The notes below the pieces were generated by a model. That model was not told the origin of the DNA and searched no databases. It worked only from the letters and a program-made list of their open reading frames with translations. From positions 459,748 through 523,747 of the forward strand of contig NZ_CP126307.1 of assembly GCF_030144325.1 (NCBI RefSeq): a DNA stretch of 64,000 bases, given 5' to 3'. The stretch is from Bosea vestrisii. GTDB lineage: Bacteria; Pseudomonadota; Alphaproteobacteria; Rhizobiales; Beijerinckiaceae. The position numbers and the translations under genes were made by a program. Shown here in pieces: positions 19,809 through 49,922 of the stretch (its first letter is position 1; the number at the start of each line of letters is the position of its first letter).

Positions 19809-19898
19809 CAGCAGATCGCCGCGCACCCGACCCGGCTTCCGCTCGGCCTTCGCTGCGCTAAGACTGCAGCCGCCGAGCTGAGTCGCGAGAGGAAGGCC

Positions 19899-22033: not shown

Positions 22034-22268
22034 GAGGCGCATCGCGCCCGGTACGCCCCGGGATAGTCCACGCGATTCCGACGGCTAAGGTTCGGTAGCT
22101 TCCCGAGCGGGAGCCTTTCGCCAGCGAAAAGCAGACCCTCGGCAATATCTACGACCTTGGCAGTAGACCGGCCTGTGCTAGCCTAGATTTAGAGCGGAAC
22201 AAAAATCCGCCATCGGCTCCGCCGTTGGAAACCTTCGGCGCGGTCGGCCACGCAGGGAGGTGAATGCA

Positions 22269-30715: not shown

Positions 30716-33471
30716 ATGACGGGGCAACTGATCGGATCGCTGATCCTCTGGCTGATCGTGGCGGTGATCATCATCGCCATCGTCGTCTATCTGGTGAACT
30801 GGCTCTACCGCCGGTCCTCGAAGGAGGTCTCCTTCGTCCGCACCGGCCTGTTCGGCGAAAAGGTGGTGATCAATGGCGGCGCCTTCGTGCTGCCGATCAT
30901 CCACGACGTCACGCCGGTCAACATGAACGTGCTGCAGCTCGCGGTGACGCGGGCGAGCAACGATGCGCTCATCACCCGCGACCGGATGCGCGTCGACATC
31001 GACGCCGAATTCTATGTCCGAGTGAAGCCGGAGCGGCAGTCGGTCTCCATCGCAGCCGCCACGCTCGGCCGGCGCACCCTGCAGCCGGACCAGCTCCATG
31101 CCCTCCTGTCCGGCAAGTTCATCTCCGCTCTCAGGACGGTCGCCTCCGAGATGACGATGGAGGAGATGCACGAGCAGCGCGGCGCCTATGTCCAGCGCGT
31201 CAAGGATGCCGCCGCCGAGGCGCTCGACCAGAACGGCCTCCTGCTGGAATCGGTTGCGCTCACCGATCTCGACCAGACCGACCTGCAATACTTCAACCCG
31301 TCCAACCGCTTCGACGCCGCCGGTCTGACGCGGATCATCGAGGAGATCGAGGACAAGCGGAAGCTTCGCAACGACATCGAGCAGGACTCGATGATCCGCA
31401 TCCGCACCCGCAACCTCGAAGCCGAACGCCAGGCGCTCGACATCGAACGCGAGAGCGAGACGGCGCGTCTCGAGCAGCAGCGCGAAATCGAGATCAAGCG
31501 CGCCATGCAGCGCACCGAGGTCGCCCGCGAGCGCGCCATCCGCGACACCGAGGCGGAGCAGGCCCAGATCACCTCGCGCGAAGAGATCGAGAAATCACGC
31601 ATCGCCAATGAGCGCGGGATCAGCGAAGCACGCATCGCTTCGGAGCGCGACATCCGCCAGCAGGAGATCGCCCGGACGCAGGCCGTCGAGGAGGCGGAGA
31701 TCGCCGCGCGCGAGCATGTCGAGAAGGCGCGCATCGCCAACGAGCAGACGATCAATGCCGTCCGCATCGCCTCCGAACGCGAGATCAGGCAGCAGGAGAT
31801 CGAGCGCACCAGGGTGCTGGAAGCAGCCGAGATCGAAGCGCGCGAGTCGACCGAGAAGGCGCGCATCCTGCAGGAAACCGCGGTGAGTGCCGAGCGCATC
31901 ACCCGCGAGCAGGAGATCCGCAATCGCGAGATCGAGCGCACCCGCACGCTCGACCAGGAAGACATCGCGGCGCGCGAGGCGGTCGAAACCTCCCGCATCG
32001 GCCAGGAAGAGCGCGTGCGCGCCCTCCAGATCGCCCGCAACAGAGCGCTGGACGAGGCTGAGATCAGCGCGCGTGAAGCGGTCGAGAAGGCAAGGATTGC
32101 CCAGGAGGACGCGATCACGGCCGACCGGATCGCCCTAGACCAGCGCAAGAGCCTGCTCGAGATCGGGCGTACCGAAGCGATCGACACCGCCGAAATCTCG
32201 GCCCGCGAAGCGACCGAAGCCGCCCGCATCGGCCAGGAGAAAGCCGTCGCGGCCGGTCGCATCGCCGCCGAACTCGCGACTAAGGGGCTCGAGATCAAGC
32301 GCAATGCCGAGCTCGACACCGCCGAGCTGAAGCGCCGCGACGCGGTCGAGCGCCAGCGGATCGCAACCGAGCTCGGTCTCGACGAAGAGCGGATCAATTC
32401 GAGCAAGACCCGCGAGATGCTGCAGATCGCCCAGAAGAAGGCGGTCGAGGTCGCCGAGGAAGAGCGCGCTATCGTGCTCGCCGCCAAGAAGGTCGAACGC
32501 GCCGACGCCGACAAGACACTGCGCCAGGCCGAGATCACCGCGCGCCAGCATGTCGAGACCGTCGACATCGCCCGCGAGCAGGCGCTGGAAGCGGTGCGGA
32601 TCGAGCGTCGCCGCGCGCTTGAGCAATTGGAAATCGCGCGCAATCAGGCGCTGCAGGAGGCGCAGATCGTCTCGAACGAGGAAGTCGAGCGGGCGCGTAT
32701 CTCCTCCGATCGCGGCCTCGACGAGGCCCGTATCGGTCGCCAGCGCGAGCTGCGCAAGCTCGAGATCGGGCGCGAACGCGAGGTCGAGGCGGCCGCCATG
32801 GACAAGGCGATCGCGCTCTACGCCAAGTCGCTGGAGGAATCGGCGGCGCAGGTCAGTGCCGAGATTGCCCGCGCCAAGGCGGTCGAGGCCGAGGAAAAGG
32901 TCAAGACCGTCCGCGAGAGGAGAGCGCGCAGCGGCGCAAGACCGTCGAGATCCTGCTCGCCGAGAAGGCCGCCGAAGAATCCCGCATTGCGTCCGAGGCC
33001 GAGAAGGTGCGCCGCGCCGTCGATGCCGAGGCGCAGAAGCTGCTCTACGAGGCCGAGAACGTGCTCAGCGACGGCGCCCGCTACGGGCTGTTCCGGCGGC
33101 GCCTGCTCGACAAGATCGAGGGCATCGTCCGCGAGAGCGTCAAGCCGATGGAGAAGATCGAAGGCATCCGCATCCTTCATGTCGATGGGCTCGCCGGTGC
33201 GGCCAGCGGCGCCGGTGGCGCCGCACGCTCGCCCACCGACGAGGTCATGGAGTCGGCGCTGCGCTACCGGGTCCAGGCGCCGATGATCGACCAGGTGCTG
33301 AAGGAGATCGGCATCGAGGGCGGCAATCTCGCCAAGATGGGCGGGCTCATGCGCGAGGCCTCGGACATGCAGCGCGTCGCCAAGGAAGCGCAGCCGGCCA
33401 AGCCGAAGGACAGTGGCGGTGAACCTGCCCCCGAAGGTGGCGGTCGCTCCGGCCCCCGCAAGAAATCGTGA
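30716..33471 (+). pseudogene. Flotillin-like SPFH/band-7 protein (YqiK-like) with long coiled-coil tandem repeats; single frameshift near 32915-32925
   Basis: N-terminal TM plus SPFH (...VSFVRTGLFGEKVVINGGAFVLPIIHDVTPVNMNVLQLAV...), then ~10 imperfect ~44-aa repeats (EAEIAAREHVEKARIANEQTINAVRIASEREIRQQEIERTRVL...). The frame-1 tail after ...KVKTVRE is Arg/Ser/Pro garbage. The true C-terminus (QRRKTVEILLAEKAAEESRIASEAEKVRRAVDAEAQKLLYEAENV...ILHVDGLAGAASG...) continues in the +2 frame to 33471. Confidence 0.65.
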
Positions 33472-33482
33472 GGCGCTGACCG

Positions 33483-33920
33483 ATGGCCCGCGTCTACGTT
33501 TCCAGCGTCATCGCCGCTCCCGCCGTCAAGGTCTGGGCCCGGGTGCGCGACTTCAACGGCCTGCCGAACTGGCACCCCCGCATCGCCGAAAGCCGGATCG
33601 AGAACGGCGAGCCGGCCGACAAGGTCGGCTGCATCCGCGCCTTCTCGCTGCGCAGCGGCGACCGGCTGCGAGAGCAGCTGCTCGGCCTCTCCGACTACGA
33701 TATGTTCTGCACCTATGCGATCCTCGACTCGCCGATGCCGCTGACGAACTACGTCGCGACGCTCAGGCTGACGCCGATCACCGACCAGGAGCGGACCTTC
33801 ATCGAGTGGTCGGCCGATTTCGACTGCGCGCCGGAGCGCGAGGCCGAGCTCGTCGCCGGCATAGGCACCAATGTCTTCCAGGGCGGTTTCGACGCCCTCA
33901 AGCGCGCCTTTGGGGGATAG
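33483..33920 (+). CDS. SRPBCC (Bet v1-like) family protein, CoxG-like
   Basis: 145 aa: ...SVIAAPAVKVWARVRDFNGLPNWHP...TLRLTPITDQERTFIEWSADFDC... is a polyketide-cyclase/CoxG-type fold. It lies immediately upstream of the Cox-like subunits. Confidence 0.7.
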   Translation: MARVYVSSVIAAPAVKVWARVRDFNGLPNWHPRIAESRIENGEPADKVGCIRAFSLRSGDRLREQLLGLSDYDMFCTYAILDSPMPLTNYVATLRLTPITDQERTFIEWSADFDCAPEREAELVAGIGTNVFQGGFDALKRAFGG

Positions 33921-33922
33921 CC

Positions 33923-34375
33923 ATGCCCCATGTTGTCCGCAGCACGATCATCGATACGCCGGCGGACCGGCTCTGGTCGGTCCTGCGCGACTTCAACGGA
34001 CACGACAAATGGCACCCCATCGTGGTGCGGAGCGAGATCGAACGCGCCTACCCGGCCGACCGGGTCGGCTGCGTCAGGCGCTTCGTCCTGCGCGACGGCA
34101 GCGAATTGCGCGAGCAGCTGCTTACGCTCTCCGATCTCGAGATGACCTTCAGCTACTGCCTGCTCGATACGCCGATCCCGCTGTTCAACTACGTCGCCCA
34201 TGTCCGGCTGCTGCCGGTGACCGACGGCAATCGCAGCTTCTGGCACTGGGAAAGCCGCTTCACCACGCCACCCGGGCGGGAGGCGGAACTCGCCAGACTC
34301 GTCGGCGACGAGGTCTACACCAACGGCATCGAGGCGGTCCGCCGCCTGCCCGCGATCGTCGGCGAGGAGGTCTGA
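33923..34375 (+). CDS. SRPBCC (Bet v1-like) family protein, CoxG-like paralog
   Basis: 150 aa: ...STIIDTPADRLWSVLRDFNGHDKWHP...HVRLLPVTDGNRSFWHWESRFTT... It is clearly paralogous to the preceding gene. Confidence 0.7.
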   Translation: MPHVVRSTIIDTPADRLWSVLRDFNGHDKWHPIVVRSEIERAYPADRVGCVRRFVLRDGSELREQLLTLSDLEMTFSYCLLDTPIPLFNYVAHVRLLPVTDGNRSFWHWESRFTTPPGREAELARLVGDEVYTNGIEAVRRLPAIVGEEV

Positions 34376-34376
34376 C

Positions 34377-35198
34377 ATGCTCGATCTGAGAACCTGCGCG
34401 AGCCTGTCGGAAGCCGCCGGCATCGTCTCCGGCGATCGCCAGGCGCTGCTGATCGGCGGCGGCACCCTGGTGATGCGTGAGGTCAACGAGGGCCGGCTGA
34501 CCGAGGGCACGCTCGTGCGCGTCACTGATCCGGCCTTCCGCCAGATCAGCGCCGGCGGCGCCCGCGTCGAGCTCGGTGCCGGCGTGACCATGGCGATGGT
34601 GCTGGCCAACCGCGAGCTCGCCTGTCTGCATGCGCCTGCACGCGGCATCGGCGGGCCGGCGGTCCGGACGATGGCGACGATCGGCGGCAATCTTTTCGCC
34701 GCTGCGCCCTATGGCGACTTCACCGTGGCGCTGCTGGCGCTCGATGCGCAGGTCGTGCTGCAATCCGGCTATGGCTCGGGCCGGGCGGTATCGCTGGAGG
34801 ATTTCCTGAGCGCGCGCGAACGCGGCGGCCAGGGCCTGGTCACCGCCGTTCAGTTCGCCAGGCCGCAGAACCCGCCCGAGCTCCACTTCCGCAAGATCAG
34901 CCGGGTCAAGCCGAAGGGCATCTCGGTGCTCTCGATCGCGGCCTATTTGCCGCTCTCGGGTGGCCGCGTCACGCAGGCGCGCGTCGCCTATGGCGCGATG
35001 GCGCCGACCCCGATCCGCGCCCGCGGCGTCGAGCGCGCCCTCGACGGCAAGCCGCTCGACCAGGCGGCGATCCAGGCGGCAAAGCAGGCGGCGCTCGAAG
35101 GCTGCCGGCCGGCGACCGACGCAATCGCGAGCGAGTGGTACCGGCGCGAGATCCTCCCCGTCCATCTCGGCCGGCTCCTGGCCGGCGAACCCCGCTGA
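34377..35198 (+). CDS. Xanthine dehydrogenase family FAD-binding subunit (CoxM-like medium subunit)
   Basis: ...ALLIGGGTLVMREVNEGRL... and ...MATIGGNLFAAAPYGDFTVALLALDAQVVLQSGYG... match the FAD_binding_5 plus CO_deh_flav_C layout. Confidence 0.85.
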   Translation: MLDLRTCASLSEAAGIVSGDRQALLIGGGTLVMREVNEGRLTEGTLVRVTDPAFRQISAGGARVELGAGVTMAMVLANRELACLHAPARGIGGPAVRTMATIGGNLFAAAPYGDFTVALLALDAQVVLQSGYGSGRAVSLEDFLSARERGGQGLVTAVQFARPQNPPELHFRKISRVKPKGISVLSIAAYLPLSGGRVTQARVAYGAMAPTPIRARGVERALDGKPLDQAAIQAAKQAALEGCRPATDAIASEWYRREILPVHLGRLLAGEPR

Positions 35199-35209
35199 GG
35201 AGGCGCGCC

Positions 35210-35692
35210 ATGGCCAAGCTCCCGGTCCAGTTCCGCCTCAATGGCAGCGATCGCGCCACCTTCGTCGACCCGGCGAGCAATCTGCTCGATACGCTCCGCC
35301 GCGGGCTCGGCGACTTCGGCCCGAAATATGGCTGCGGCCAGGGCACCTGCGGCGTCTGCACCGTGCTGGTCGACGGCGAGCCGCAACTCGCCTGCCTGAC
35401 GCTCGCGGCCTCCTGCGAGGGCCGCCAGATCGAGACCACCTCCGGGATGGCTGATGGCCCCGAGCTGCATCCGCTGCAGGCCGCCTTCATGGACCATTTC
35501 GCCGCGCAATGCGGCTTCTGCACGCCGGGCATGCTGACCGCCGCGCGGGCGCTGCTGGCAAAGAACCCGCATCCAAGCCGGGACGAGGTCGTCGAGGCGA
35601 TCAGCGGCAACATCTGTCGCTGCACCGGTTACGAGCCGATCATCGCCGCCATTCTCGCCGCAGCGGACGCGCCCGGCGCGCGCCGGGCCTGA
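35210..35692 (+). CDS. (2Fe-2S)-binding small subunit of xanthine dehydrogenase family (CoxS-like)
   Basis: Plant-type ferredoxin cysteines GCGQGTCGVCTVLVDG and a second cluster motif CGFCTPGML...[18 protein letters not shown] upstream. Confidence 0.85.
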   Translation: MAKLPVQFRLNGSDRATFVDPASNLLDTLRRGLGDFGPKYGCGQGTCGVCTVLVDGEPQLACLTLAASCEGRQIETTSGMADGPELHPLQAAFMDHFAAQCGFCTPGMLTAARALLAKNPHPSRDEVVEAISGNICRCTGYEPIIAAILAAADAPGARRA

Positions 35693-35706
35693 AGAAGGAA
35701 CCCGCC

Positions 35707-37470
35707 ATGCTCGAGATGCGCAAGGACCTGTTCGCCGACGAGCGCGACGACAATCTCAACGTCGTCGGCAAAGGCGTGCAGCGCCAGGATATGCCCGGCC
35801 ATGTCACGGCACGCACCCGCTTCTTCGACGACCACGCCTTCGACGGCATGCTGCATCTCAAGGTGGTACGCAGCCCGCATCATCATGCCCGCATTCGTTC
35901 GATCGACGTCTCGGCCGCCGAGCGTGCACCCGGCGTCAAGCGTGTGCTGCGCGGCGCCGATGTGCCCGTGAACAAGAACACGCTGCTCAGCCTGATCAAT
36001 TTCGGCAAGGACGACGAGCCTTCGCTGGCGGTGAACAAGGTCTGCTACAAGGGCGAGCCGGTCGTGGCGATCCTCGCCGACAGCGAGGCGCAGGCGCAGG
36101 CCGCCTGCAAACTCGTCCGGATCGACTACGATCCGCTGCCGGCGGTGTTCGACGTCGAGGAGACTCTGAAAGCCGGCGCGCCGGTGGTCAACGAGACCTA
36201 TCCCGGCAACTACTTCGAATATCACGAGCGCTTCGACCATCAGAAGCTGCGCTTCGGCGATGTCGAGCGCGGTTTTTCCGGCGCCGACATCGTGATGGAG
36301 CATCGCTACCAGATGTCCCCGATCGAGCATGCGCCGACCGAGACCAATGGCTCGATCGCCGCGCCCGAGCAGAATGGCCGCTTCGTCGTGCACTCCTGCG
36401 CCCAGGGCCTGTTCTTCGCGCTGGGAACGACTGCCAAGATCGTCAATGTCGAGTCGAACCAGCTGCATTTCATCGGCGGCACCGTTGGTGGCGGCTTCGG
36501 CGGCAAGGTCGACTCCCTGACCGAGCCGCTCGCCGTGCTCGGCGCCATGCTGACCGGCCGGCCGGTGCGCTTCGTCCTCGATCGCGAGGAGGAGATGCTC
36601 TACGGCTCGCCGCGCGGCGCCGAGCGCATCTACATCAAGGACGGATTGATGCGCGACGGGCGGATCGTCGCCCGCCATATCCGCAGCTATTTCGACGCCG
36701 GCGCCTATACTCGCCTGTCGAGCTACGCGGCGATCAAATGCACGGCGCATGTGCCGGGACCGTACTGGATCCCGAACGTCACCTCCGACATCTATGTCGC
36801 CTATACCAATCGCTGCCCGTCTACCGCCATGCGCGGCTTCGGCGTCACCGCGGTCGATTTCGCGCTCGAGGTCCAGATGGATCGCCTTGCCGAAGCCGCG
36901 AACATGGACCCGATGGAGCTGCGCATCCTCAACGCCTATCGCGATGGCGATATGAAACCGCATCGGCGCGCCGCCAAGAACACGGCGCTGGTCGAATGCG
37001 TGCAGGTCGCGGCCGGGAAGGCGAACTGGCCACTATCCGAGCAGGCGAAGCGGGCGTCCTCGCTGATCGGCGGCGGCGCCGGCGAGCGCGCGCAGATCCC
37101 GGCGACCCAGCTCGACGCCCGCGGCCAGATCGGCCGGCCCGACACGCGCAGCGGGCCCGTGACGCAGGTTCTGCCCGCCGGCACGACCCGGATCGCGCCG
37201 AGCAAGCAGCCGGTGATGGAAGGCGCTCGCGACGGGCGCGCGACGCCGACGCAGGTGCCGCGCTACGAGCCGCCACGGCCAGCGACCGGGGTACCGCCTT
37301 CCCCCTATCAGCCAGCGCCGCCGCCATCCTACCAGCCGGCCGGTTCGCATCCGGCACCGCCCGCCTACCAGCCGCCGCCCGCTCCCGCTGCCCCGCCGCC
37401 GGCTGCGCCGGCGCAGACGCAGCACGGCGCGGTGCGGTTCTCTTCCGTCTTCGGCACGAGGAGGCGCTGA
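35707..37470 (+). CDS. Xanthine dehydrogenase family molybdopterin-binding subunit, N-terminal two-thirds (CoxL-like), with C-terminal Pro/Gln-rich tail
   Basis: Ald_Xan_dh_C hammerhead plus the start of the MoCo domain (...HLKVVRSPHHHARIRSIDVS..., ...YVAYTNRCPSTAMRGFGVT..., resembling the XDH PSNTAFRGFG loop). Ends with ...PSPYQPAPPPSYQPAGSHPAPPAYQPPPAPAAPPP... before the stop. Confidence 0.8.
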   Translation: MLEMRKDLFADERDDNLNVVGKGVQRQDMPGHVTARTRFFDDHAFDGMLHLKVVRSPHHHARIRSIDVSAAERAPGVKRVLRGADVPVNKNTLLSLINFGKDDEPSLAVNKVCYKGEPVVAILADSEAQAQAACKLVRIDYDPLPAVFDVEETLKAGAPVVNETYPGNYFEYHERFDHQKLRFGDVERGFSGADIVMEHRYQMSPIEHAPTETNGSIAAPEQNGRFVVHSCAQGLFFALGTTAKIVNVESNQLHFIGGTVGGGFGGKVDSLTEPLAVLGAMLTGRPVRFVLDREEEMLYGSPRGAERIYIKDGLMRDGRIVARHIRSYFDAGAYTRLSSYAAIKCTAHVPGPYWIPNVTSDIYVAYTNRCPSTAMRGFGVTAVDFALEVQMDRLAEAANMDPMELRILNAYRDGDMKPHRRAAKNTALVECVQVAAGKANWPLSEQAKRASSLIGGGAGERAQIPATQLDARGQIGRPDTRSGPVTQVLPAGTTRIAPSKQPVMEGARDGRATPTQVPRYEPPRPATGVPPSPYQPAPPPSYQPAGSHPAPPAYQPPPAPAAPPPAAPAQTQHGAVRFSSVFGTRRR

Positions 37471-37471
37471 C

Positions 37472-38515
37472 ATGGCCCGTCACGAAGGCAGGGGCATGGC
37501 CTCGGTCAACTACCCGATCGGCATGAATCTCGGCGGCGATCCGAGCCAGGCCCTGATCCACTCCAACCCGGACGGCAAATTCACCGTCGCGCTCTCGGCG
37601 ATCGATCTCGGCCAGGGCATGAAGCAGGTCTCGCGCCAGATCGCGGCCGAGACGCTCGGCGTTCCCGTCGAGGACGTCTATGTCGACACCGCCGACAGCG
37701 ACACCGGCCCGCACGACATGGGCTCCTTCGCCTCGCGCGGCACCCATCGCATGGGCAACGCCATCATCGTCGCCGCCCGCGAGGCGCGCGGCGTGCTGCT
37801 CGAAGCCGCAGCCGAGGAGCTCGAGGTCAACGCCGCCGACCTCGTCACCGACGGGCTCGGCAACATCCATGTCCGCGGCGCGCCCTCGCGCAGCATCACG
37901 GTCAAGGCGACGGCGCAGGCGGCGCAGTTCAAGCAGGGCAAGACCATCGCCGGGCGCGGCATCTTCCTGATTCCGCTCTCGGCCGTCGATGCCGAGACCG
38001 GCGAGATGAACCCGAACACCGCCTTCGCCCATGCCTGCCTCGTCGCCGATGTCGCCGTCGATGACGAGACCGGCGAGGTCGAGGTGCTCAGGATGACCAG
38101 CGCCTACGAGCTCGGCCGCGTCATCAACCCGCGCATGGTCGAGCAGCAGCTCGTCGGCGGCGCCTGGATGGGGATCAGCCACGCGCTCTATGAGACGCCG
38201 GAGCCGTACTATCCCAATCCCGAGCACGGCCCGCGCGACTTCAACGAATATTTGATGCCGGGACCGGGCGACATCGCGCCCTATCACGTCACCGTGCTGG
38301 AGCGACCGGCGCCGGACGGCCCGTTTGGCGGCAAGGGCCCGGGCGAGATGTGCGCCAATCCGGTGCTGCCGGCGGTCGCCAATGCCGTCTACAACGCCAT
38401 CGGCGTCCGGGTCGACGAATTGCCGATCACGCCGGAGAAGATCCTGCGGGCTATCCGGGCCAATGGCGGCGTCAAACCGGGGCCTCGTCGCGGCGGCCCG
38501 GTGAACTGGCGGTGA
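37472..38515 (+). CDS. Xanthine dehydrogenase family molybdopterin-binding subunit, C-terminal third (separate ORF)
   Basis: Starts 1 nt after the previous stop, in the +1 frame, with an AGGAGG SD 7 nt upstream. ...ALSAIDLGQGMKQVSRQIAAETLGVPVEDVYVDTADSDTGPHDMGSFASRGT... and ...YELGRVINPRMVEQQLVGGAWMGISHAL... complete the MoCo domain. Confidence 0.75.
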   Translation: MARHEGRGMASVNYPIGMNLGGDPSQALIHSNPDGKFTVALSAIDLGQGMKQVSRQIAAETLGVPVEDVYVDTADSDTGPHDMGSFASRGTHRMGNAIIVAAREARGVLLEAAAEELEVNAADLVTDGLGNIHVRGAPSRSITVKATAQAAQFKQGKTIAGRGIFLIPLSAVDAETGEMNPNTAFAHACLVADVAVDDETGEVEVLRMTSAYELGRVINPRMVEQQLVGGAWMGISHALYETPEPYYPNPEHGPRDFNEYLMPGPGDIAPYHVTVLERPAPDGPFGGKGPGEMCANPVLPAVANAVYNAIGVRVDELPITPEKILRAIRANGGVKPGPRRGGPVNWR

Positions 38516-38519
38516 CGGC

Positions 38520-39404
38520 ATGGCGCTGAGGACGACCGTCGCTGGCATTTCGAGCCCGGAGGACCTCGCCGAGGCCCTGCAGGCGGCGATGTATCTCGCC
38601 GATGACGGCATCGCCACGGCCGGCTACCTCTCGCTCGCGCTCGGCAAGCCGCTGCTGCTCGAAGGCGCGCCCGGCGTCGGCAAGACCGAGGCGGCGAAAG
38701 CGCTCGCCGGCATTCTCGGGCGCCAGCTCATTCGTCTCCAGTGTTTCGAAGGCATCGACGCGGCGGCTGCCCTCTATGAGTGGAACTATCCGCGCCAGAT
38801 GCTCGCCATCCGCCAGGCGAAGGAAGGCGAGCAGCTCGACATCTACCGCGACGACTTCCTGATTGAGCGGCCGATGCTGACGACGCTACGGCGGCCGGAA
38901 TCGACCGTGCTGCTGATCGACGAGATCGACCGCTCCGACCATGAATTCGAGGCCTTCCTGCTCGAATTCCTCTCGGATTTCTCGATCTCGATCCCCGAGC
39001 GCGGCACGTTGCGCGCCGCCGAGCGGCCGGTCGTGATCCTGACCTCGAACCGGACGCGCGAGCTGCACGAGGCGCTCAGGCGCCGCTGCGTCTACCACTA
39101 TATCGCCTATCCCGAGCCGGAGCGCGAGGCGCAGATCATCATGCTGCGCTCCTCCGCCGTCGCCGAGAGCACGGCGCGGGCCGTCGTCCAGGCCGTCGGA
39201 TTGTTGCGGCAGGAGCCGCTCGCCAAGCCACCGGGCGTCGCCGAGGCAGTCGACTGGGCCGAGGCCGCGACGGCGCTCGCGCAGACCGGCGCACCCTGGC
39301 CGGAGGCCTTCCGCCGCTCGCTCGGCGCCGCGATCAAGGACGAGGAAGACCTCGTCCATCTGCGGCCGCGCCTGCCGCTCTTCATCCCGGGGCTGGCGGC
39401 ATGA
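38520..39404 (+). CDS. MoxR family AAA+ ATPase (CoxD-like)
   Basis: Walker A LLEGAPGVGKTEAAKALA and Walker B VLLIDEIDRSD, with the AAA_5 layout. Confidence 0.85.
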   Translation: MALRTTVAGISSPEDLAEALQAAMYLADDGIATAGYLSLALGKPLLLEGAPGVGKTEAAKALAGILGRQLIRLQCFEGIDAAAALYEWNYPRQMLAIRQAKEGEQLDIYRDDFLIERPMLTTLRRPESTVLLIDEIDRSDHEFEAFLLEFLSDFSISIPERGTLRAAERPVVILTSNRTRELHEALRRRCVYHYIAYPEPEREAQIIMLRSSAVAESTARAVVQAVGLLRQEPLAKPPGVAEAVDWAEAATALAQTGAPWPEAFRRSLGAAIKDEEDLVHLRPRLPLFIPGLAA

Positions 39405-39713
39405 GGATTTCAACGTCATTGCGAGCGAAGCGAAGCAATCAAGGGGGACGTGGAGCCCTGCCGCCCCCGGATTGCTTCATCGCTTCGCGCCTCGCAATGA
39501 CGGACGCTGCAAACGCGTTCCCTTCCCCCTTGTGGGGAAGGGTTAGGGATGGGGGCGAACGACCGGGTACAAGACAACTCGTAAAAGCGGATCTGTCTAT
39601 TTCCCAGCGAATTTGCCCCGACTTTCCGCCCCCCACCCCTGCCCCTCCCCACAAGGGGGAGGGGTTCTCCGCGCCTCTCCGCCTTTCGCAAATGGAGAAA
39701 GGAGGTACGCGCC
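39405..39713. repeat. Cluster of palindromic REP/MITE-like repeats between the MoxR and VWA genes
   Basis: Inverted pair TCATTGCGAGCGAAGCGAAGCAATC ... GATTGCTTCATCGCTTCGCGCCTCGCAATGA, plus two G/C palindromes CCTTCCCC-TTGT-GGGGAAGG and CCCCTCCCC-ACAA-GGGGGAGGGG. Spurious translations read SLRAKRSNQ...DCFIASRLAMTD...PSPLWGRV, which I recall as typical of known alphaproteobacterial repeat families. Confidence 0.5.
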
Positions 39714-40829
39714 ATGATCGCGCCACTCCCCGCCGCCATCAGGCTCTTCGTCGCCTTCCCGGCGCTGCTGCGCGAGCACGGTATCGCGGCTGCCCCAGAG
39801 CAGGCGACCAGCTTTTTGATGGCGATCAAGCTGCTCGGTCCGCGCAGCATCGCTGATATCCGCAAGGCGGCGATCGCGACGCTTAGCCCCCATCCCGAAC
39901 AGCGCGAACGCTTCGACGCGCTGTTCGACATGCATTTCCTCGGTGGCGCATTCGCCGAACCAGGCGATGACGACTTCGCCCCTGACGAGGACATCTCCGT
40001 CCAGGAGGACACCGGCTCGCGCGAGGTGCTGATCGGCGAGGAAGCCAACGAGACCGGCCAGGTCGCGACCGGCGCCGAGGCCCTGTCGATCCGGCAGCTG
40101 AAGACGCTCGACGACAGCGAGACCTTGCGCCGTTTCGGCCGGGCGCTGCCGGCCGCCCTGCCCCGCCGCCGCGGCTATCGTCATCGCACGGCGCGGCGCG
40201 GACCGATGGTCGACCTCGCCCGCAGCCTCAAGGACGCGATCCGTCATGACGGCGAGGTGATGAGCCTGAAGCGGCTCCGGCGGGTGACGCGGCCGCGACC
40301 GATCCTGCTGCTGATCGATGTCTCAGGCTCGATGAAGCAGCGCAGCGACGCCAATCTCGCGCTGGCGCATACGATCGTGCAAGCGACGCAGCGGGTCGAG
40401 GTCTTCACCTTCGGTACCCGCCTCACCCGCGTCACGCGGGCGCTGCGGCGCAAGCGGCGCGAGCAGGCGCTGGCCGAAGCCTCCGGCCTCGTCGCCGACT
40501 GGGATGGCGGCACGCGCATCGGCGATGCGCTGCAGGCCTTCCTCGCCGTGCCCCGCTTCGCGCCCTACGCCCGTGGCGCGGTCGTCGTCGTGCTTTCGGA
40601 TGGTCTCGAACGCGGCGATCCATCGGCTCTGGTCGGCGCCGTCGCTCGGCTGGCACAGCGCGCCCATCGCATCGACTGGCTGACGCCGCTCGCCGCCGAT
40701 CCCGGCTACCGGCCCGAGACCGAAGCGCTTCGGCTGATCGCGCCGCGCCTCGCCAGCCTCTCGGATGGCGCCAGCACGGCGCGGATTTGCCGGCACATCC
40801 TGTCACTCGGAGGCTCGCTAGCCGCATGA
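39714..40829 (+). CDS. VWA domain-containing protein (CoxE-like)
   Basis: ...RPILLLIDVSGSMKQRSDANLALAHTIV... (MIDAS DxSxS) sits in the C-terminal half. This is the typical partner of a MoxR ATPase in cox/xdh clusters. Confidence 0.8.
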   Translation: MIAPLPAAIRLFVAFPALLREHGIAAAPEQATSFLMAIKLLGPRSIADIRKAAIATLSPHPEQRERFDALFDMHFLGGAFAEPGDDDFAPDEDISVQEDTGSREVLIGEEANETGQVATGAEALSIRQLKTLDDSETLRRFGRALPAALPRRRGYRHRTARRGPMVDLARSLKDAIRHDGEVMSLKRLRRVTRPRPILLLIDVSGSMKQRSDANLALAHTIVQATQRVEVFTFGTRLTRVTRALRRKRREQALAEASGLVADWDGGTRIGDALQAFLAVPRFAPYARGAVVVVLSDGLERGDPSALVGAVARLAQRAHRIDWLTPLAADPGYRPETEALRLIAPRLASLSDGASTARICRHILSLGGSLAA

Positions 40830-41707
40830 TCGGCATCATCGATTCCCATTTCCACATCTGGCGGCAGGCCGACCTGCCTTGGCTGCTCGGCCCGATGCAA
40901 CCGCGCATCTTCGGGCCTTACGAGCCGATCCGGCGCGATTACCCGATCACCGAATATCTCGGCGATTGCCGCCCGGCAGGCGTGACCGAAGCCGTCTATG
41001 TCCAGGCCAATTGGGCGGTCGAGCGCTATCTCGACGAGGTGACTTACGTCTCGCAGGCCTCGGAGGAAGCCGGTTTCCCGATCGCCATCGTCGCCTATGC
41101 CGACATGCTCGCCGGCGATGTCCGCCCACAGCTCGACCAGCTTGCGCGCAACGCCCGTGTGCGCGGCGTGCGCATGCAATTGCACTGGCACGAGAACACG
41201 CTCTACCGCTTCGCCAGCGGGCCTGACCTCGCGCGCGATCCGCGGCTGATCGCCAATGTCGGGCGGCTGGCGGAGTACGGCTTCAGCTTCGACCTCCAGG
41301 TCTTCGCCGGTCAGATGGCGGGCGCCGCCGAGCTCGCCGCCGCCTGCCCGGGCGTGACCTTCGTGCTCCAGCATGCCGGCATGCTGGAGAACCTTTCCCC
41401 AGAAGGCATCGCCGCCTGGCAAGCGGGCATGAATCTGCTCGCAGGCCAGCCCAACATCGCCAGCAAGCTGTCGGGTCTCGGCACTTTCCTCCGCCGCAAC
41501 GATCCCGAGACAATTGCCTTCATCGCCGGCGAGACGCTCAGCCTGTTCGGCGCCGCGCGCTGCCTGTTCGGCTCCAATTTCCCGATCGAGAAGCTCTGGA
41601 CGACCTACGCCGAGCTGATCGAGGCGCATCGCGCCGCCGTGCCCGAAACGGCGCAGGCCGCCGTGTTCAATGAGACTGCAAGGCGGGTCTACCGCCTCGA
41701 CCAATAA
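40826..41707 (+). CDS. Amidohydrolase family protein (amidohydrolase-2/PF04909-like TIM-barrel metal-dependent hydrolase)
   Basis: MIGIIDSHFHIW... (HxH metal site at the N-terminus), ...VLQHAGM... and ...LFGSNFP... follow the LigI/ACMSD-like pattern. ATGA overlap with the VWA gene. Confidence 0.75.
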   Translation: MIGIIDSHFHIWRQADLPWLLGPMQPRIFGPYEPIRRDYPITEYLGDCRPAGVTEAVYVQANWAVERYLDEVTYVSQASEEAGFPIAIVAYADMLAGDVRPQLDQLARNARVRGVRMQLHWHENTLYRFASGPDLARDPRLIANVGRLAEYGFSFDLQVFAGQMAGAAELAAACPGVTFVLQHAGMLENLSPEGIAAWQAGMNLLAGQPNIASKLSGLGTFLRRNDPETIAFIAGETLSLFGAARCLFGSNFPIEKLWTTYAELIEAHRAAVPETAQAAVFNETARRVYRLDQ

Positions 41708-41724
41708 TCAAGGGGAGGACGTTC

Positions 41725-42573
41725 ATGGCCCTCGAAATCAAGATCCTCGACTATGGCGATATCGAGCTGGAATCGAGCTTCCTCGTTCTCGGCCGCGATT
41801 GCGGCCGCACAAGGCGCGTGCCGACCTATGGCTTCCTGATCCTCGGCGGTCCCTGGCCGGTCGTGGTCGATACCGGCTACCGCCACAACCAGATCATGGA
41901 GAGCCTCGGTATGCGCGGCCTCCAGTTCCATGAAAACATGATCGAGAACCAGCTCTCGAGGCACGGCGTGCGGATGGGCGATGTGCGCTATGTCATGCAC
42001 ACCCATCTCCATATCGACCATGCCGGCAAGGACGAGCTCTTCCCGATGAACACCACGGTGCTCGTCAACCGGCGCGAGCTCGAATACTCCGTCTCCGGGC
42101 TGATGCACCCGCAATATCCGGCGCCCGACATCAAGCACCTGATCGACCGGCTCCATACGCGCGACGCGCTGCGCTTCGAGGATCTCGAACTCTCGGGGAT
42201 GATCGAGCTCTTCCCCGGCTGCTATCTCGAAGCCGCCGGCGCCCACACCGAAGGCTCGATGAACGTCCATGTCGACACCAATGAGGGCCGCGCCATCATC
42301 TGCGGCGACGTGATCTACGACTTCAACGACCAGATCGTCACGCCCTTCCACGAGCTCCACGCCAACGAGCCGCGCACCACCGGCAATCACGGTGTCTCCA
42401 AGCGCGAGGAGAAGGCGGCGATCAAGAAGCTGCTCTCGGCCGGTGCGTTCCTGCTGCCGGTGCACGACAAGCCGGCCAAGATCGCCCATGGCCAGGTCGT
42501 CGGCCGCATGGACATGGCCGTGCCCGGCCCGGTGGTGCAGTCGCTGCCGGCGCGAAACTGGTTCGCGGCCTGA
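41725..42573 (+). CDS. MBL-fold metallo-hydrolase (N-acyl homoserine lactonase/AttM-AiiB-like)
   Basis: HTHLHIDHAG (HxHxDH) plus downstream His/Asp ligands (...GAHTEGSMNVHVD..., ...CGDVIYDF...). Confidence 0.8.
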   Translation: MALEIKILDYGDIELESSFLVLGRDCGRTRRVPTYGFLILGGPWPVVVDTGYRHNQIMESLGMRGLQFHENMIENQLSRHGVRMGDVRYVMHTHLHIDHAGKDELFPMNTTVLVNRRELEYSVSGLMHPQYPAPDIKHLIDRLHTRDALRFEDLELSGMIELFPGCYLEAAGAHTEGSMNVHVDTNEGRAIICGDVIYDFNDQIVTPFHELHANEPRTTGNHGVSKREEKAAIKKLLSAGAFLLPVHDKPAKIAHGQVVGRMDMAVPGPVVQSLPARNWFAA

Positions 42574-42587
42574 CGGGGCCCGCCAGC

Positions 42588-44204
42588 ATGACCACGCATC
42601 TCGCCGTCCAGCCCGGCTTCGCCGACCTGATCGACCTCTGGGCGCCGGTGCGCCAGCTCGGCACGGGCTTCGAGTTCGGCGAGGGCCCAATCTGGCATCC
42701 GCACGAGCAGCACCTGCTGTTCTCGGACATGCCGGGCGATGTCCGCCGCCGCTGGGACAAAAGCGGCGTCCGCGAGGTCAGGCGGCCGGCGAACAAGTGC
42801 AACGGCATGACCTATGACGCCGCGCTCGACCTCATCGTCTGCGAGCACGCGACCTCGGCGCTGGTGCGCGAGCGGCCGGACGGGCAGCACGAGACCATCG
42901 CCTCGCATTTCGAGGGCATGGAGCTCAACAGCCCCAACGACGTCGTCGTGAAGTCGGACGGGGCGATCTATTTTTCCGATCCCTGGTATGGCCGCATGCC
43001 GGTCTTTGGCGTCGAGCGGCCGCGCCAGCTCGGCTTTCAGGGGGTCTACCGCGTTCCGCCAGAGGGTGGAGCGCCGCAGCCCCTGGTCGACCGCTATCTC
43101 TTCGACCAGCCAAACGGGCTCTGCTTCTGCCCGAGCGAGGACCGGCTCTTCGTCAACGACACCGTCCAGCACAATATCCGCGTCTTCGACGTCAAGCCGG
43201 ATGGCCGGCTCGGCCCCGGCCGCATCTTCGCCTCCGGCATCGTCGGCTCCGAGCCCGGCGTCCCCGACGGGATGAAATGCGATGCGCAGGGCAATATCTG
43301 GGTCACCGGACCGGGCGGCGTCTGGGTCTATTCGATCAAGGGCGAGCTGATCGGCAAGCTGCGCGTGCCCGAGCTCGTCGGCAACCTCACCTGGGGCGGG
43401 GCGGACTGGCGCACGCTCTTCCTCACCGCGAGCCATTCGCTCTACGCTGTCGAGACCAAGGTCGGGCCGCGCCGTGAGCCCTACATGAAGGCGGCCGCCC
43501 AGCAACTGGGCCGCAGCGCCGCGGCGGAGCGCCCACTCGCCGACGCCAGCCCCGCTGCCTCCGTCTCGGCAAACGGCACGAAGAAGGCCGCATCCGGCTA
43601 CCGGCTCGATCCGTCGCGCTGCGCCCTGATCATCCAGGACATGCAGAACGACGTCGTCATGGAGGGCGGCGCCTTTGCCAGCTCGGGCTCGCCGGAGCAT
43701 TGCCGGCAGCAGAACGCGATCGCCAATGGCGCGCGGCTGGCGCAGGTGGCGCGGGCGCGCGGCATTCCGGTGATCCATGTCTGGTTTGTCGTCGAGGCCG
43801 GCGCGCCCGGCGTCACCATGAACGCGCCATTGTTCGAAGGCCTGGCCGATGCCAAGGCGCTGGTGCGCGGCAGTTGGGGCGCAGCGCCCGTGCCGGGCCT
43901 CGAGGCGCAGAGCGGCGACCATATCGTCGAGAAGCAGCGCATGAGCGCCTGGGAAGGCACGCGGCTCGAAACCGTACTCAAGGCGCGCGGCCGCGACATC
44001 GTCATCGTCACCGGTGCCTGGACCAACATGTCGATCGAGCACACCGCCCGCACCGGCGCCGACAAAGGCTATTTCATGGTGGTGCCGGAGGATGCCTGCT
44101 CGACGATGAACGCCGAATGGCACACCGCGTCTGTCAACTACGCGCTGCAGAATGTCGGCGTCGTCACCGATGTCGACGCCGTCATCGCCGCGACCGGTGC
44201 GTGA
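42588..44204 (+). CDS. Two-domain protein: SMP-30/gluconolactonase/LRE-like beta-propeller (aa 1-~300) fused to isochorismatase-family cysteine hydrolase (aa ~345-538)
   Basis: N-terminal ...GFEFGEGPIWHPHEQHLLFSDMPGDVRRRWDKSG...GMELNSPNDVVVKSDGAIYFSDPWYG...PNGLCFCPSEDRLFVNDT...DGMKCDAQGNIWVT... (SGL, PF08450). C-terminal ...ALIIQDMQNDVV...IPVIHVWFVVEAG...IVIVTGAWTNMSIEHTARTGADKGYFMVVPEDACS... is the isochorismatase fold with a catalytic Cys. No stop separates the two domains. Confidence 0.7.
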   Translation: MTTHLAVQPGFADLIDLWAPVRQLGTGFEFGEGPIWHPHEQHLLFSDMPGDVRRRWDKSGVREVRRPANKCNGMTYDAALDLIVCEHATSALVRERPDGQHETIASHFEGMELNSPNDVVVKSDGAIYFSDPWYGRMPVFGVERPRQLGFQGVYRVPPEGGAPQPLVDRYLFDQPNGLCFCPSEDRLFVNDTVQHNIRVFDVKPDGRLGPGRIFASGIVGSEPGVPDGMKCDAQGNIWVTGPGGVWVYSIKGELIGKLRVPELVGNLTWGGADWRTLFLTASHSLYAVETKVGPRREPYMKAAAQQLGRSAAAERPLADASPAASVSANGTKKAASGYRLDPSRCALIIQDMQNDVVMEGGAFASSGSPEHCRQQNAIANGARLAQVARARGIPVIHVWFVVEAGAPGVTMNAPLFEGLADAKALVRGSWGAAPVPGLEAQSGDHIVEKQRMSAWEGTRLETVLKARGRDIVIVTGAWTNMSIEHTARTGADKGYFMVVPEDACSTMNAEWHTASVNYALQNVGVVTDVDAVIAATGA

Positions 44205-44303
44205 GCGCTCAAGCGTCGCATGACCGGCAGTGCGGAACTCGGGCCGTGTGATGGCGCGCCCGGCATGGTCTCCGCACCGATCGGACAAGACCGGCCTCGC
44301 GCA

Positions 44304-44960
44304 TCAGCCGATGCGCATGGACAATTCGACGTCCTCGGCAAAGGGGACGGACAGGTAGCCGCTGCCGGGTGCGCGCACCCGCTGCAAGTATTCCGGGCAG
44401 TCATCGGCGTTGTCCGCGACGACGAGCGAACCAGGACGGAGGGCGCCCTCCACCAGGTCGAGGACATCAGGGTAAAGCGACTTGGCGCCGTCCAGCAGCA
44501 GCAGATCGATCGTTTCAGGAAGACCTGCACCGAGCGTCTTCAGCGCATCGCCCTGCCTGATCTCGACGAGGTCGGCGAGGCCGCCGGCGTTGAGGTGCTC
44601 GCGAGCCCGCGCCACCTTGGCGGGCTCGAACTCGGTGGTGATCAATCGTCCGCCGCCATTGTCCCGCAGGGCCGCGGCGAGGTGCAGGGTAGAGATGCCG
44701 AAGGAGGTGCCGAACTCGACGATCGTCCGGGCCCGGCTGCTGCGCGCCAGCATGTAGAGCAACACGCCCGTCTCCCGCGAAACCGGAAGCCAGAGATCCT
44801 TCAGGCGGCCATAGAGGTCGAGATACTCGGTCTTGCTGCGCATCAGGCGCTCGCGTTCCTCGCGAGAGAAGTCCGGAAGCGCAGGGCTGGGAGCCGCGCT
44901 CGCCTGCTCGAAAAGGTGGTCCAGAAGAGGCGCGAGCGGCGCCGTTGCCAGGGTCGTCAT
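44304..44960 (-). CDS. Class I SAM-dependent O-methyltransferase (family 3, caffeoyl-CoA OMT-like)
   Basis: ...RTIVEFGTSFGISTLHLAAAL... (SAM motif I), ...LLLLDGAKSLYPDVLDL..., ...GSLVVADN... Confidence 0.8.
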   Translation of the reverse strand: MTTLATAPLAPLLDHLFEQASAAPSPALPDFSREERERLMRSKTEYLDLYGRLKDLWLPVSRETGVLLYMLARSSRARTIVEFGTSFGISTLHLAAALRDNGGGRLITTEFEPAKVARAREHLNAGGLADLVEIRQGDALKTLGAGLPETIDLLLLDGAKSLYPDVLDLVEGALRPGSLVVADNADDCPEYLQRVRAPGSGYLSVPFAEDVELSMRIG

Positions 44961-45056
44961 GGGATTTGCTCCGATCGGAAGGCGGTGGGTTCTTGTCTCG
45001 GAGTAGAAAATACGAATAATTCGTCGCGTTTCCTATTCGCATTGCCGGAGCACGAT

Positions 45057-45695
45057 GTGGCCGATCAGCCAACCTCCCGAATTTCCTCGCGAAAAACGCC
45101 GAAACAGACGCGCTCAGCGGAGCTGGTCTCGGCCATATTGGAAGCCGCTGTTCAGGTTCTGGCGCAGGAAGGTGCTCAGCGCTTCACCACGGCCCGCGTG
45201 GCCGAGAGGGCCGGCGTCAGCGTCGGCTCGCTCTACCAGTATTTCCCGAACAAGGCGGCCATCCTGTTCCGGCTGCAGAGCGACGAATGGCGGCAGACCA
45301 ACGCGATGCTGACCGGTATCCTCGGCGATGCCACCAAGCCGCCGCTCGCCCGCCTGAGAATGCTGGTCCATGCCTTCATCCGGTCCGAATGCGACGAGGC
45401 CACAGTGCGCGTCGCGCTCAGCGATGCGGCCCCGCTCTACCGTGACGCGCCTGAAGCGAAGGAGGCCCGCGCGGCTGGCAGCCGGCTTTTCGAGACGTTC
45501 ATGACAGCTGCGCTGCCAGCTGCGTCGGCAGGGGAACGCATGCTGGCCAAGGATCTGATCACCATGACGCTGAGCGCCGTCGGCAAGCAGTTCTCGGCAA
45601 CGGCGAGGACCGATGCCGAAATCCAGGCCTATTCCGACGCTCTCGCCGACATGTTTTGCGCCTATCTGCGCCATTTAGGGCAAGGCCGCGGATGA
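45057..45695 (+). CDS. TetR/AcrR family transcriptional regulator
   Basis: HTH ...TRSAELVSAILEAAVQVLAQEGAQRFTTARVAERAGVSVGSLYQYFPNKAAIL... The start is GTG 45057 or TTG 45042, as there is no in-frame ATG. It is divergent from the methyltransferase, and a 13-bp palindrome sits in the shared promoter region. Confidence 0.75.
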   Translation: MADQPTSRISSRKTPKQTRSAELVSAILEAAVQVLAQEGAQRFTTARVAERAGVSVGSLYQYFPNKAAILFRLQSDEWRQTNAMLTGILGDATKPPLARLRMLVHAFIRSECDEATVRVALSDAAPLYRDAPEAKEARAAGSRLFETFMTAALPAASAGERMLAKDLITMTLSAVGKQFSATARTDAEIQAYSDALADMFCAYLRHLGQGRG

Positions 45696-48051: not shown

Positions 48052-48108
48052 CGGTCTTTCCCTTTCGAAACGTCGATGCTGGTTGGCCCGCGCCCATGCG
48101 CGAGCCGG

Positions 48109-48954: not shown

Positions 48955-48964
48955 GGCTGCCTCC

Positions 48965-49918: not shown

Positions 49919-49922
49919 GCCG

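Follow-up and report, generated by a model that had tools for sequence, protein, structure and literature searches.

A widely conserved 22-kb gene unit in Bosea vestrisii, probably an operon, joins a split molybdenum hydroxylase to a transporter, a kinase-like fusion and lactonase-like hydrolases

We analyzed a 64,000-nucleotide stretch of the Bosea vestrisii genome (assembly GCF_030144325.1, contig NZ_CP126307.1, positions 459,748 to 523,747; hereafter the window), in which an earlier note had described genes for a molybdenum hydroxylase, accessory proteins of the carbon monoxide dehydrogenase (CODH) type, several hydrolases, a methyltransferase and a TetR regulator as a candidate catabolic island. 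We found that the hydroxylase and hydrolase genes belong to a conserved unit of about 22 kb, probably co-transcribed as an operon, which also encodes a transporter, a regulator, a kinase-like fusion protein and a flotillin, and which we regard as an orphan version, found very widely, of an already known type of system with several unusual accessories. Gene families were assigned by Pfam and NCBIfam profile matches, and all genes listed in the earlier note were recovered at or near the coordinates claimed for them. The features are given below; co-conservation counts, here and throughout, refer to alphaproteobacterial loci with enough flanking sequence.

22260..23519, + strand: periplasmic solute-binding protein of the Peripla_BP_6 type, HAAT family (Pfam)
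23690..24544, + strand: AraC-family regulator, the conserved regulator of the unit (Pfam HTH_18 and AraC_binding)
24537..25550, + strand: ABC permease, LivH-type (Pfam BPD_transp_2; kept in Yoonia and Shinella)
25553..26641, + strand: ABC permease, LivM-type (translation and tblastn conservation)
26638..27426, + strand: ABC ATPase, LivG-type (start overlaps the preceding stop in ATGA)
27419..29662, + strand: fusion of a LivF-type ABC ATPase with a UPF0261 kinase-like domain (Pfam ABC_tran, UPF0261 and UPF0261_C in a single open reading frame)
29659..30540, + strand: PEP_hydrolase-like TIM-barrel protein (Pfam E=8e-130; in 59/61 loci)
30716..33471, + strand: flotillin-type membrane scaffold, about 920 residues when intact, frameshifted here (Band_7, Flot)
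33483..33920, + strand: SRPBCC protein 1 (Pfam PF10604; in 65/66 loci)
33923..34375, + strand: SRPBCC protein 2 (Pfam PF10604; in 64/66 loci)
34377..35198, + strand: FAD-binding subunit (Pfam FAD_binding_5 and CO_deh_flav_C)
35210..35692, + strand: subunit with two [2Fe-2S] clusters (Pfam Fer2 and Fer2_2)
35707..37470, + strand: large subunit binding the molybdenum cofactor (MoCo), part 1 (L1), hammerhead and MoCoBD_1 (Pfam)
37027..37470, + strand: proline-rich, low-complexity C-terminal tail of L1
37472..38515, + strand: MoCo large subunit, part 2 (L2), MoCoBD_2 (Pfam)
38520..39404, + strand: MoxR-type AAA+ ATPase (Pfam AAA, AAA_5 and AAA_3; in 77/77 loci)
39714..40829, + strand: VWA protein, CoxE family (Pfam VWA_CoxE, E=4e-49; in 75/76 loci)
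40826..41707, + strand: Amidohydro_2 hydrolase (Pfam; in 68/74 loci)
41725..42573, + strand: metallo-beta-lactamase-fold (MBL) hydrolase (Pfam Lactamase_B; in 67/70 loci)
42588..44204, + strand: fusion of an SMP-30/gluconolactonase-like (SGL) domain with an isochorismatase-like domain (Pfam; in 67/68 loci)
44304..44960, - strand: methyltransferase, outside the conserved unit
~45057-45695, + strand: TetR regulator, outside the conserved unit (probable GTG start at 45057)

To delimit the unit, we scanned one genome per species, which returned at least 583 carriers, and fetched the best 80 for locus comparison. The gene order is kept in all 80 fetched Hyphomicrobiales genomes and again in Jannaschia, Roseomonas, Yoonia and Shinella; recurrence on this scale, with four further alphaproteobacterial orders or plasmids joining the 80 genomes, puts the arrangement far beyond what chance would produce. 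The upstream block, from the binding protein to the flotillin, has the same order in Jannaschia, Roseomonas and the plasmids of Yoonia and Shinella; the operon therefore spans approximately 22260-44204. Thus, the molybdenum and hydrolase genes of the earlier note stand as its downstream half, but the true start lies about 11 kb further upstream, at 22260. Between 33483 and 44204, adjacent genes overlap or sit 1-17 bp apart, except at one repeat insertion; the ATGA overlap of the VWA and Amidohydro_2 genes was verified, and the second SRPBCC gene was re-called at 33923-34375, an arginine-rich open reading frame at 33871 being a spurious frame. Conservation is unusually high, with L2 about 80% identical across alphaproteobacterial orders. 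Window GC content is 65-69%, and neighbouring loci in sequenced Bosea genomes share 95-99% protein identity. What had been called an island is instead a vertically widespread operon.

The repeat insertion is a 310-bp segment (39405-39713) that separates MoxR from VWA. It contains two long palindromic elements, including GTCATTGCGAGCGAAGCGAAGCAATC...GGATTGCTTC...CTCGCAATGAC, and has a very stable predicted fold (-175 kcal/mol for 330 nt). We found no second copy within the window, and an Rfam scan of the window returned no riboswitch and no other RNA family. VWA directly follows MoxR in four Bosea loci (L001-L004), and some other Bosea carry insertions of different length.

The downstream boundary is sharp: in comparison with nine other Bosea genomes, synteny at the DNA level breaks off at 44,194-44,208. 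The methyltransferase and TetR genes, which the earlier note had counted as cluster members, lie beyond this point and are found at 0/66 loci; neither was found beside the operon in any other genome examined. They form a divergent pair of their own, with a perfect palindrome, ACGAATAATTCGT (~45010-45022), between them that overlaps a promoter-like site (44993-45020). TetR as regulator of the operon was rejected on these grounds (locus count, synteny break and pairing with the divergent methyltransferase), and the conserved regulator is the upstream AraC, which occupies the same position in Yoonia, Shinella and Sinorhizobium BG8 (33-39% identity), or a GntR protein in Actinobacteria. Directly upstream of the binding-protein gene, at 18888-22033, lie genes for a MerR regulator, a TenA/PQQC-family protein and an MFS transporter.

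Outside the complete operon, we observed minimal versions in distant taxa. Sinorhizobium BG8 retains AraC, one SRPBCC gene, the molybdenum enzyme, MoxR, VWA and Amidohydro_2, and Nonomuraea, Nocardioides, Mycobacterium, Prauserella and a Thermomicrobiales metagenome-assembled genome carry a divergent GntR gene followed by the molybdenum enzyme, MoxR, VWA and Amidohydro_2. Two of the GntR-type clusters, those of Nocardioides and Mycobacterium, add a gene of the fumarylacetoacetate (FAA) hydrolase family and a YCII gene. On a haloarchaeal plasmid, the split molybdenum enzyme is followed by a cyclase-family hydrolase and an SRPBCC gene. From these minimal clusters it follows that the chemistry-defining core is the hydroxylase with MoxR and VWA, usually accompanied by Amidohydro_2, which is the sole hydrolase kept in Nonomuraea, Prauserella, the Thermomicrobiales genome and Sinorhizobium BG8. 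Variable accessory genes were also seen in Yoonia (L086; 2831-5362 and 26418-28752), Shinella (L088; 5075-6208) and two further loci (L089 and L090; ~14-16 kb). They comprise an iron-type alcohol dehydrogenase and an aldehyde dehydrogenase between the binding protein and AraC, and, downstream of the operon, short-chain dehydrogenase/reductase (SDR), FAA-hydrolase-family, YCII, XdhC and glycerate kinase genes; these flanking genes may be clues to later pathway steps.

At the center of the unit is a molybdenum enzyme with all domains of the xanthine dehydrogenase (XDH)/aldehyde oxidase family: hammerhead, MoCoBD_1, MoCoBD_2, FAD and double [2Fe-2S] domains (Pfam E-values of 1e-26 to 1e-66). A GGGFGGK motif is located at L1 residue 261, and the loop quoted in the earlier note, YVAYTNRCPSTAMRGFG, is present at L1 residues 363-379. 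The earlier note had read the enzyme as an XDH-family hydroxylase rather than a CODH, and this reading holds: the CODH models of NCBIfam score only 154 bits (TIGR02416, cut-off 991) and 158 bits (NF040766, cut-off 950). In a placement by score rankings rather than by a tree, the best-matching relatives of known structure are nicotinate dehydrogenase, aldehyde oxidoreductase and 4-hydroxybenzoyl-CoA reductase, with CODH structures ranking lower, also below quinoline oxidoreductase. The active-site loop reads AYTNRCPSTAMRGFG, with the general form YTNRxPxTAMRGFG, and differs from the CODH loops, which we take to be AYRCSFR (form I) and AYRGAGR (form II). The cysteine in the Bosea loop is confined to a branch of Bosea, Xanthobacter, Methylobacterium and Phreatobacter; its position is occupied by Thr, Val or Gln in Bradyrhizobium, Jannaschia, Roseomonas, Nonomuraea and others. 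CODH membership was rejected on the model scores, the structure ranking and the loop sequence.

Both MoCo chains find their best structural match in the nicotinate dehydrogenase of Eubacterium barkeri, NdhFSLM (PDB 3HRD), whose subunits correspond to those of the Bosea enzyme: an FAD subunit, one with two [2Fe-2S] clusters and a MoCo subunit that is divided, at the same point, between two chains. The alignments pair L1 residues 18-439 with residues 6-415 of the 425 of NdhL (3HRD_A, E=3e-56), and L2 residues 4-330 with residues 3-327 of the 330 of NdhM (3HRD_B, E=4e-48). Two active-site residues are conserved by alignment and invariant in 20 orthologues: L2 Glu292 corresponds to NdhM Glu289, presumably the catalytic base, and L2 Tyr14 to NdhM Tyr13. 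The latter has been modelled to contact the pyridine nitrogen in nicotinate dehydrogenase (PMC5746545). The L1/L2 split is genuine, as an AGGAGG Shine-Dalgarno sequence precedes L2 and second chains of about 340 residues dominate the database matches. Two long database proteins that might represent natural L1-L2 fusions (P0027 and P0071) were read as frame-shifted reading frames of metagenome assemblies, because on inspection their linkers resemble an out-of-frame L1 tail and contain no RFSS motif before the L2 start. Despite these likenesses, identity to the E. barkeri enzyme is only ~35-40%. The Bosea L1 differs in carrying a proline-rich tail of 70-150 residues with a conserved terminal peptide, and the partners are lactonases, MoxR/VWA and flotillin rather than the Hnr and enamidase that we presume the E. 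barkeri cluster to contain. The E. barkeri enzyme has a Mo=Se site and comes from an anaerobe (PMC5746545); we noticed no Se-insertion genes in the window, for which no systematic search was made. Moreover, other alphaproteobacterial enzymes are equally similar to NdhM in different gene contexts, such as with TTT transporters and a ThDP enzyme or with purine permease genes, and the nearest-structure label is therefore no predictor of the substrate. We found no paper in a literature search that assigns a substrate to this enzyme.

The remaining genes of the enzyme module point to known systems only in part. The best NCBIfam match of the 2Fe-2S subunit is the gamma subunit of 4-hydroxybenzoyl-CoA reductase, under cut-off. 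In NCBIfam, the MoxR and VWA proteins come nearest to MadB and MadC, the MadB-like model giving 258 bits for MoxR (under the cut-off of 475), and by family MoxR is probably CoxD-like in role. Like cox clusters (CoxMSL and CoxD/E/G), the unit encodes a three-cofactor enzyme together with a MoxR-type ATPase, a VWA_CoxE protein and SRPBCC accessory proteins, but the large subunit is not CODH-like by score or loop, the Bosea operon contains no CoxF/XdhC gene, and the SRPBCC proteins belong to PF10604 rather than to CoxG. The last point qualifies the description of these two proteins, 49% identical paralogues, as CoxG-like in the earlier note: the shared fold stands, but at E<=0.01 only PF10604 and PF03364 match, and the CoxG family (PF06240) does not. 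The nearest folds found by Foldseek for the AlphaFold2 model of SRPBCC-1 (pLDDT 77) are uncharacterised bacterial SRPBCC proteins and the plant PYR/PYL ligand receptors, with no entry described as CoxG among the top 50.

Downstream of the enzyme, three hydrolase genes are co-conserved with it (Amidohydro_2 in 68 of 74 loci, the MBL hydrolase in 67 of 70 and the fusion in 67 of 68). The earlier note had staked its proposal on this linkage and on a large subunit without CODH affinity, and both hold. A profile of Amidohydro_2 built from 11 orthologues matches 4DLF over its full length (E=2e-28), followed by 6UVZ, an uncharacterised structure, and marginally (E=0.09) an entry named putative 2-pyrone-4,6-dicarboxylate hydrolase; up to E=1, none of the entries it finds carries the name of a decarboxylase (such as ACMSD, LigW or IDCase). 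We take 4DLF to be an L-fucono-1,5-lactonase, and the lactonase subgroup of the amidohydrolases to be COG3618 with LigI as a member. Because the profile finds 4DLF and no decarboxylase, we place Amidohydro_2 by sequence in the lactonase subgroup, with which it also shares the N-terminal D-x-H-x-H motif (D6, H8 and H10 invariant). A decarboxylase of the ACMSD or PicC type, as in a picolinate-type route, was rejected since the profile finds lactonase-subgroup structures only. Amidohydro_2 scores only 84 bits against the NCBIfam fuconolactonase model (cut-off 400), and its partner is a molybdenum hydroxylase, not an NAD(P)-dependent sugar dehydrogenase. The MBL hydrolase has the HxHxDH metal-binding motif (HLHIDH) and weak matches to N-acyl-homoserine lactone lactonases and 4-pyridoxolactonase, and thus appears lactonase-like. 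The fusion protein matches 3E5Z and 3KL2, with the SGL matches deposited as 'putative Gluconolactonase' and 'Exported gluconolactonase'. In its isochorismatase-like domain, all 67 of 67 sequences keep Asp351, Lys449 and Ser482; in the alignment, Ser482 stands where RutB (TNVCVEST) has its catalytic cysteine, so that this domain has an Asp-Lys-Ser triad and lacks the Asp-Lys-Cys triad of the cysteine amidohydrolases of the family (NicF, CSHase, RutB, BiuH and PncA). The argument of the earlier note from maleamate and carbamoylsarcosine amidases is thereby weakened, as is a candidate role as maleamate amidase or nicotinamidase, and the emphasis shifts from amide to ester or lactone hydrolysis. 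Amidohydro_2, as a member of the lactonase subgroup, is neither a decarboxylase nor a typical amidase.

The upstream half of the operon suggests what kind of compound might be taken up. The best solved match of the binding protein is 4ZPJ, named only 'extracellular ligand-binding receptor', and the next are 4EY3, 4EVQ, 4EVS and 4F06 of Rhodopseudomonas palustris, which we take to be hydroxybenzoate and vanillate binders crystallised with those ligands. The protein thus resembles aromatic-acid binders in sequence, and orthologues occupy the same position in Yoonia and Shinella. In the LivF::UPF0261 fusion, an Ala/Pro-rich linker of about 90 residues connects the two halves; the fusion aligns in one piece and nearly full length to Yoonia and Shinella and is also called in Jannaschia (729 residues). 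UPF0261 is the family of the aromatic kinase MarK, with one demonstrated activity, the ATP-dependent phosphorylation of aromatic hydroxyl groups (PMC12624787). With MarK (Saro_1862 of Novosphingobium aromaticivorans), the Bosea protein shares the N- and C-terminal UPF0261 domains and the DTK ATP-site motif (PMC12624787), retained as GTLDTKGEE with the ATP-contacting lysine. It differs in its fusion to a transporter ATPase and in its pairing with a protein of the PEP_hydrolase-like type, the domain that accompanies UPF0261 in Tm-1-like proteins; the operon also contains no acetovanillone carboxylase genes. The fusion architecture suggests that uptake may be coupled to phosphorylation. A precedent for linking such proteins to a molybdenum hydroxylase is the 3-hydroxypyridine dehydrogenase HpdA1-4 of Ensifer adhaerens HP1, which has a separate SRPBCC protein and is functionally linked to ATP/PEP-dependent kinase-like proteins encoded alongside it (bioRxiv 10.1101/2020.01.08.898148); we count it in favor of our scheme because it combines a molybdenum hydroxylase, a separate SRPBCC subunit and a need for kinase-like proteins. 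However, HpdA1, its MoCo subunit, is presented as one component without any report of a split, its kinase-like proteins belong to the PEP-utilising/dikinase family rather than to UPF0261, and it adjoins maleamate-pathway genes that are absent from the Bosea operon.

Three accessories of the alphaproteobacterial loci point to the membrane. The L1 tail is a proline-rich stretch of 70-150 residues ending in the peptide HGAxRFSSVFGTRRR (37435-37467 in the window). In a codon comparison, RFSSVFG is conserved through many synonymous changes, and selection therefore acts on the protein; the AGG AGG codons of the terminal RRR are fixed and double as the Shine-Dalgarno sequence of L2, and a purely protein-level signal was rejected for these arginines. 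The tail motif and the flotillin gene occur together: the motif is present in 79/79 alphaproteobacterial loci with a readable region, each with the flotillin gene, and both are absent in 7 loci. The flotillin gene itself was counted in 60/62 loci, and the intact protein of another Bosea locus (L009) has an N-terminal transmembrane helix, an SPFH domain, a long repeated coiled coil and a Flot domain. We infer that the flotillin, the SRPBCC proteins and the L1 tail localise the enzyme at the membrane.

Together, these observations suggest a scheme in which the operon handles one imported small molecule by hydroxylation followed by hydrolysis. The HAAT-type ABC transporter would import the compound, with AraC controlling the operon, and the UPF0261 kinase-like domain and its PEP-hydrolase-like partner may activate it with ATP. 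The four-chain XDH-family enzyme (FAD, two [2Fe-2S] and split MoCo), presumably matured by MoxR and VWA, would then hydroxylate a substrate carbon using water, at a position next to a ring heteroatom or at an aldehyde or hemiacetal carbon, and electrons would pass to the respiratory chain. In Alphaproteobacteria, the two SRPBCC proteins, the dedicated flotillin and the L1 tail would plausibly keep the enzyme at the membrane. Hydroxylation would yield a lactone or a lactam tautomer that the lactonase-type Amidohydro_2 opens hydrolytically, and the MBL and SGL::isochorismatase-like enzymes may act on further ester or lactone intermediates. A heterocyclic or aromatic carboxylic acid is the substrate that we would guess first. 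As the minimal clusters are self-sufficient, two steps may be enough to reach central metabolism. For example, five-membered heteroaromatic 2-carboxylates such as 2-furoate and pyrrole-2-carboxylate would give 2-oxoglutarate by such a route, a speculation drawn from known CoA-dependent chemistry.

We hold this scheme as a whole with moderate confidence, at about even odds. Several observations weigh against it. Amidohydro_2 is missing in 6/74 alphaproteobacterial loci, and for a classical heteroaromatic pathway to be complete, the operon would need a dioxygenase, reductase or CoA ligase, none of which it contains. The enzyme has no characterised homologue closer than ~40% identity, and its orthologous group is isolated: when 1.84 billion cluster representatives were searched, no further full-length relative exceeded 47% identity, and those next in rank mix split and fused forms. 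Some neighbours (FAA-hydrolase-family, SDR, glycerate kinase and sugar ABC genes) suggest sugar-acid chemistry. In this window, the flotillin gene is frameshifted by a 1-bp deletion at ~32,920 relative to Bosea locus L009, which places its Band_7 and Flot domains in two different frames; this is either a sequencing error or a strain-specific pseudogene, and the gene is intact in six other genomes checked (875-999 residues). Finally, the actinobacterial versions do without the SRPBCC proteins, the flotillin and the tail, which are therefore not essential to the chemistry.

Considering alternatives, the lactonase affinities and the FAA-hydrolase, SDR and glycerate kinase neighbours make one of them a serious rival. 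Here, the molybdenum enzyme would oxidise an aldehyde or cyclic hemiacetal straight to a lactone, which the three lactonase-like enzymes would hydrolyse; with a sugar, a deoxysugar or a ring-fission semialdehyde as substrate, this would be a molybdenum-dependent version of non-phosphorylative sugar-acid routes. There are reports of molybdenum-dependent oxidation of deoxyribose to a lactone. Among solved structures, 4DLF, presumably an L-fucono-1,5-lactonase, alone is clearly related to Amidohydro_2, the SGL domain matches gluconolactonase-named entries, and the isochorismatase-like domain is without the amidase cysteine. In Yoonia, Nocardioides and Mycobacterium, FAA-hydrolase-family and SDR genes come after the cluster, with a glycerate kinase in Nocardioides, and the NCBIfam glyceraldehyde dehydrogenase models give substantial partial scores. 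However, the transporter is of the HAAT type, with an aromatic-acid-like binding protein, not of the sugar CUT1 or CUT2 type, the operon has no conserved sugar-acid dehydratase or aldolase, UPF0261 has its precedent in phenol phosphorylation, and the invariant Tyr14 corresponds to a residue that has been modelled, in nicotinate dehydrogenase, as a hydrogen-bond partner of the ring nitrogen. On balance, we consider this explanation unlikely, both for the reaction and for the substrates it names, though it is the strongest of the alternatives.

That the enzyme is a nicotinate dehydrogenase of the E. barkeri type, in an operon degrading nicotinate or nicotinamide, is more improbable. NdhL and NdhM are the best solved homologues of both MoCo chains and share the split point, NdhM Tyr13 is conserved as Tyr14, and the binding protein is related to benzoate-type binders. 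Yet identity is low, and many alphaproteobacterial enzymes in other contexts are equally close to NdhM. Across ~90 loci, none of Hnr, enamidase, NicC and NicX is found in the operon; no operon gene matches a reductase, dioxygenase or monooxygenase family, the only amidohydrolase is the lactonase-type Amidohydro_2, and the isochorismatase-like domain is without the cysteine used by maleamate amidase and nicotinamidase. Moreover, a separate nicotinate cluster, with a homologue of 6-hydroxynicotinate reductase (Hnr) and its own ABC transporter, has been described in related bacteria, namely Azorhizobium, Bradyrhizobium USDA110, R. palustris and strain SG-6C (PMC3511419). Nicotinate is therefore disfavoured as the substrate, given this distinct published cluster and an operon without 6-hydroxynicotinate reductase-, enamidase-, monooxygenase- or dioxygenase-like genes. 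Lastly, an aerobic CODH of form I or II with CoxD/E/G accessory genes, as the neighbouring MoxR, VWA_CoxE and SRPBCC genes and the loop cysteine of Bosea might suggest, is already effectively refuted by the model scores far under cut-off, the higher-ranking structures, the loop, the replacement of its cysteine in other genera and the placement of the SRPBCC proteins outside the CoxG family.

Returning to the scheme of hydroxylation followed by hydrolysis, its most far-reaching version joins a flotillin-organised membrane metabolon, uptake-coupled phosphorylation and an unrecognised heterocyclic-acid route. In this version, the RFSSVFG of the proline-rich tether would dock the enzyme to flotillin or SRPBCC, with electrons going to quinone, the ABC-ATPase::UPF0261 fusion would couple uptake to substrate phosphorylation, and the route could be, for example, a CoA-independent one from furoate or pyrrole-2-carboxylate to 2-oxoglutarate. 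As a combination, we regard it as doubtful, ranking in probability between the sugar and nicotinate explanations.

Two further features of the window lie apart from the operon. At 46918-51206, on the - strand, genes for a family-4 glycoside hydrolase and a CUT1-type sugar ABC transporter (two permeases and a binding protein) are unrelated to it. The gene for release factor 2, prfB (3031-~4160, - strand), contains a classical programmed +1 frameshift site at ~4093, which reads AGGAGG CAT CTT TGA C, the first frame ending ...LLRRHL*.

In summary, both current labels of the enzyme, 'nicotinate dehydrogenase' by nearest structure and 'CO/xanthine dehydrogenase' by annotation, are likely misleading. 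Carriers of the enzyme span Hyphomicrobiales, Rhodobacterales and Acetobacterales, with relatives in Actinobacteria, Chloroflexota and haloarchaea, and identification of the substrate would fill a gap in our understanding of carbon and nitrogen turnover in soil, rhizosphere and marine environments. It would also give functions to the UPF0261/PEP-hydrolase pair, to the serine variant of the isochorismatase fold and to a flotillin inside a catabolic operon. If the metabolon reading is true, an abundant heterocyclic acid would have a catabolic route that has so far gone unrecognised.

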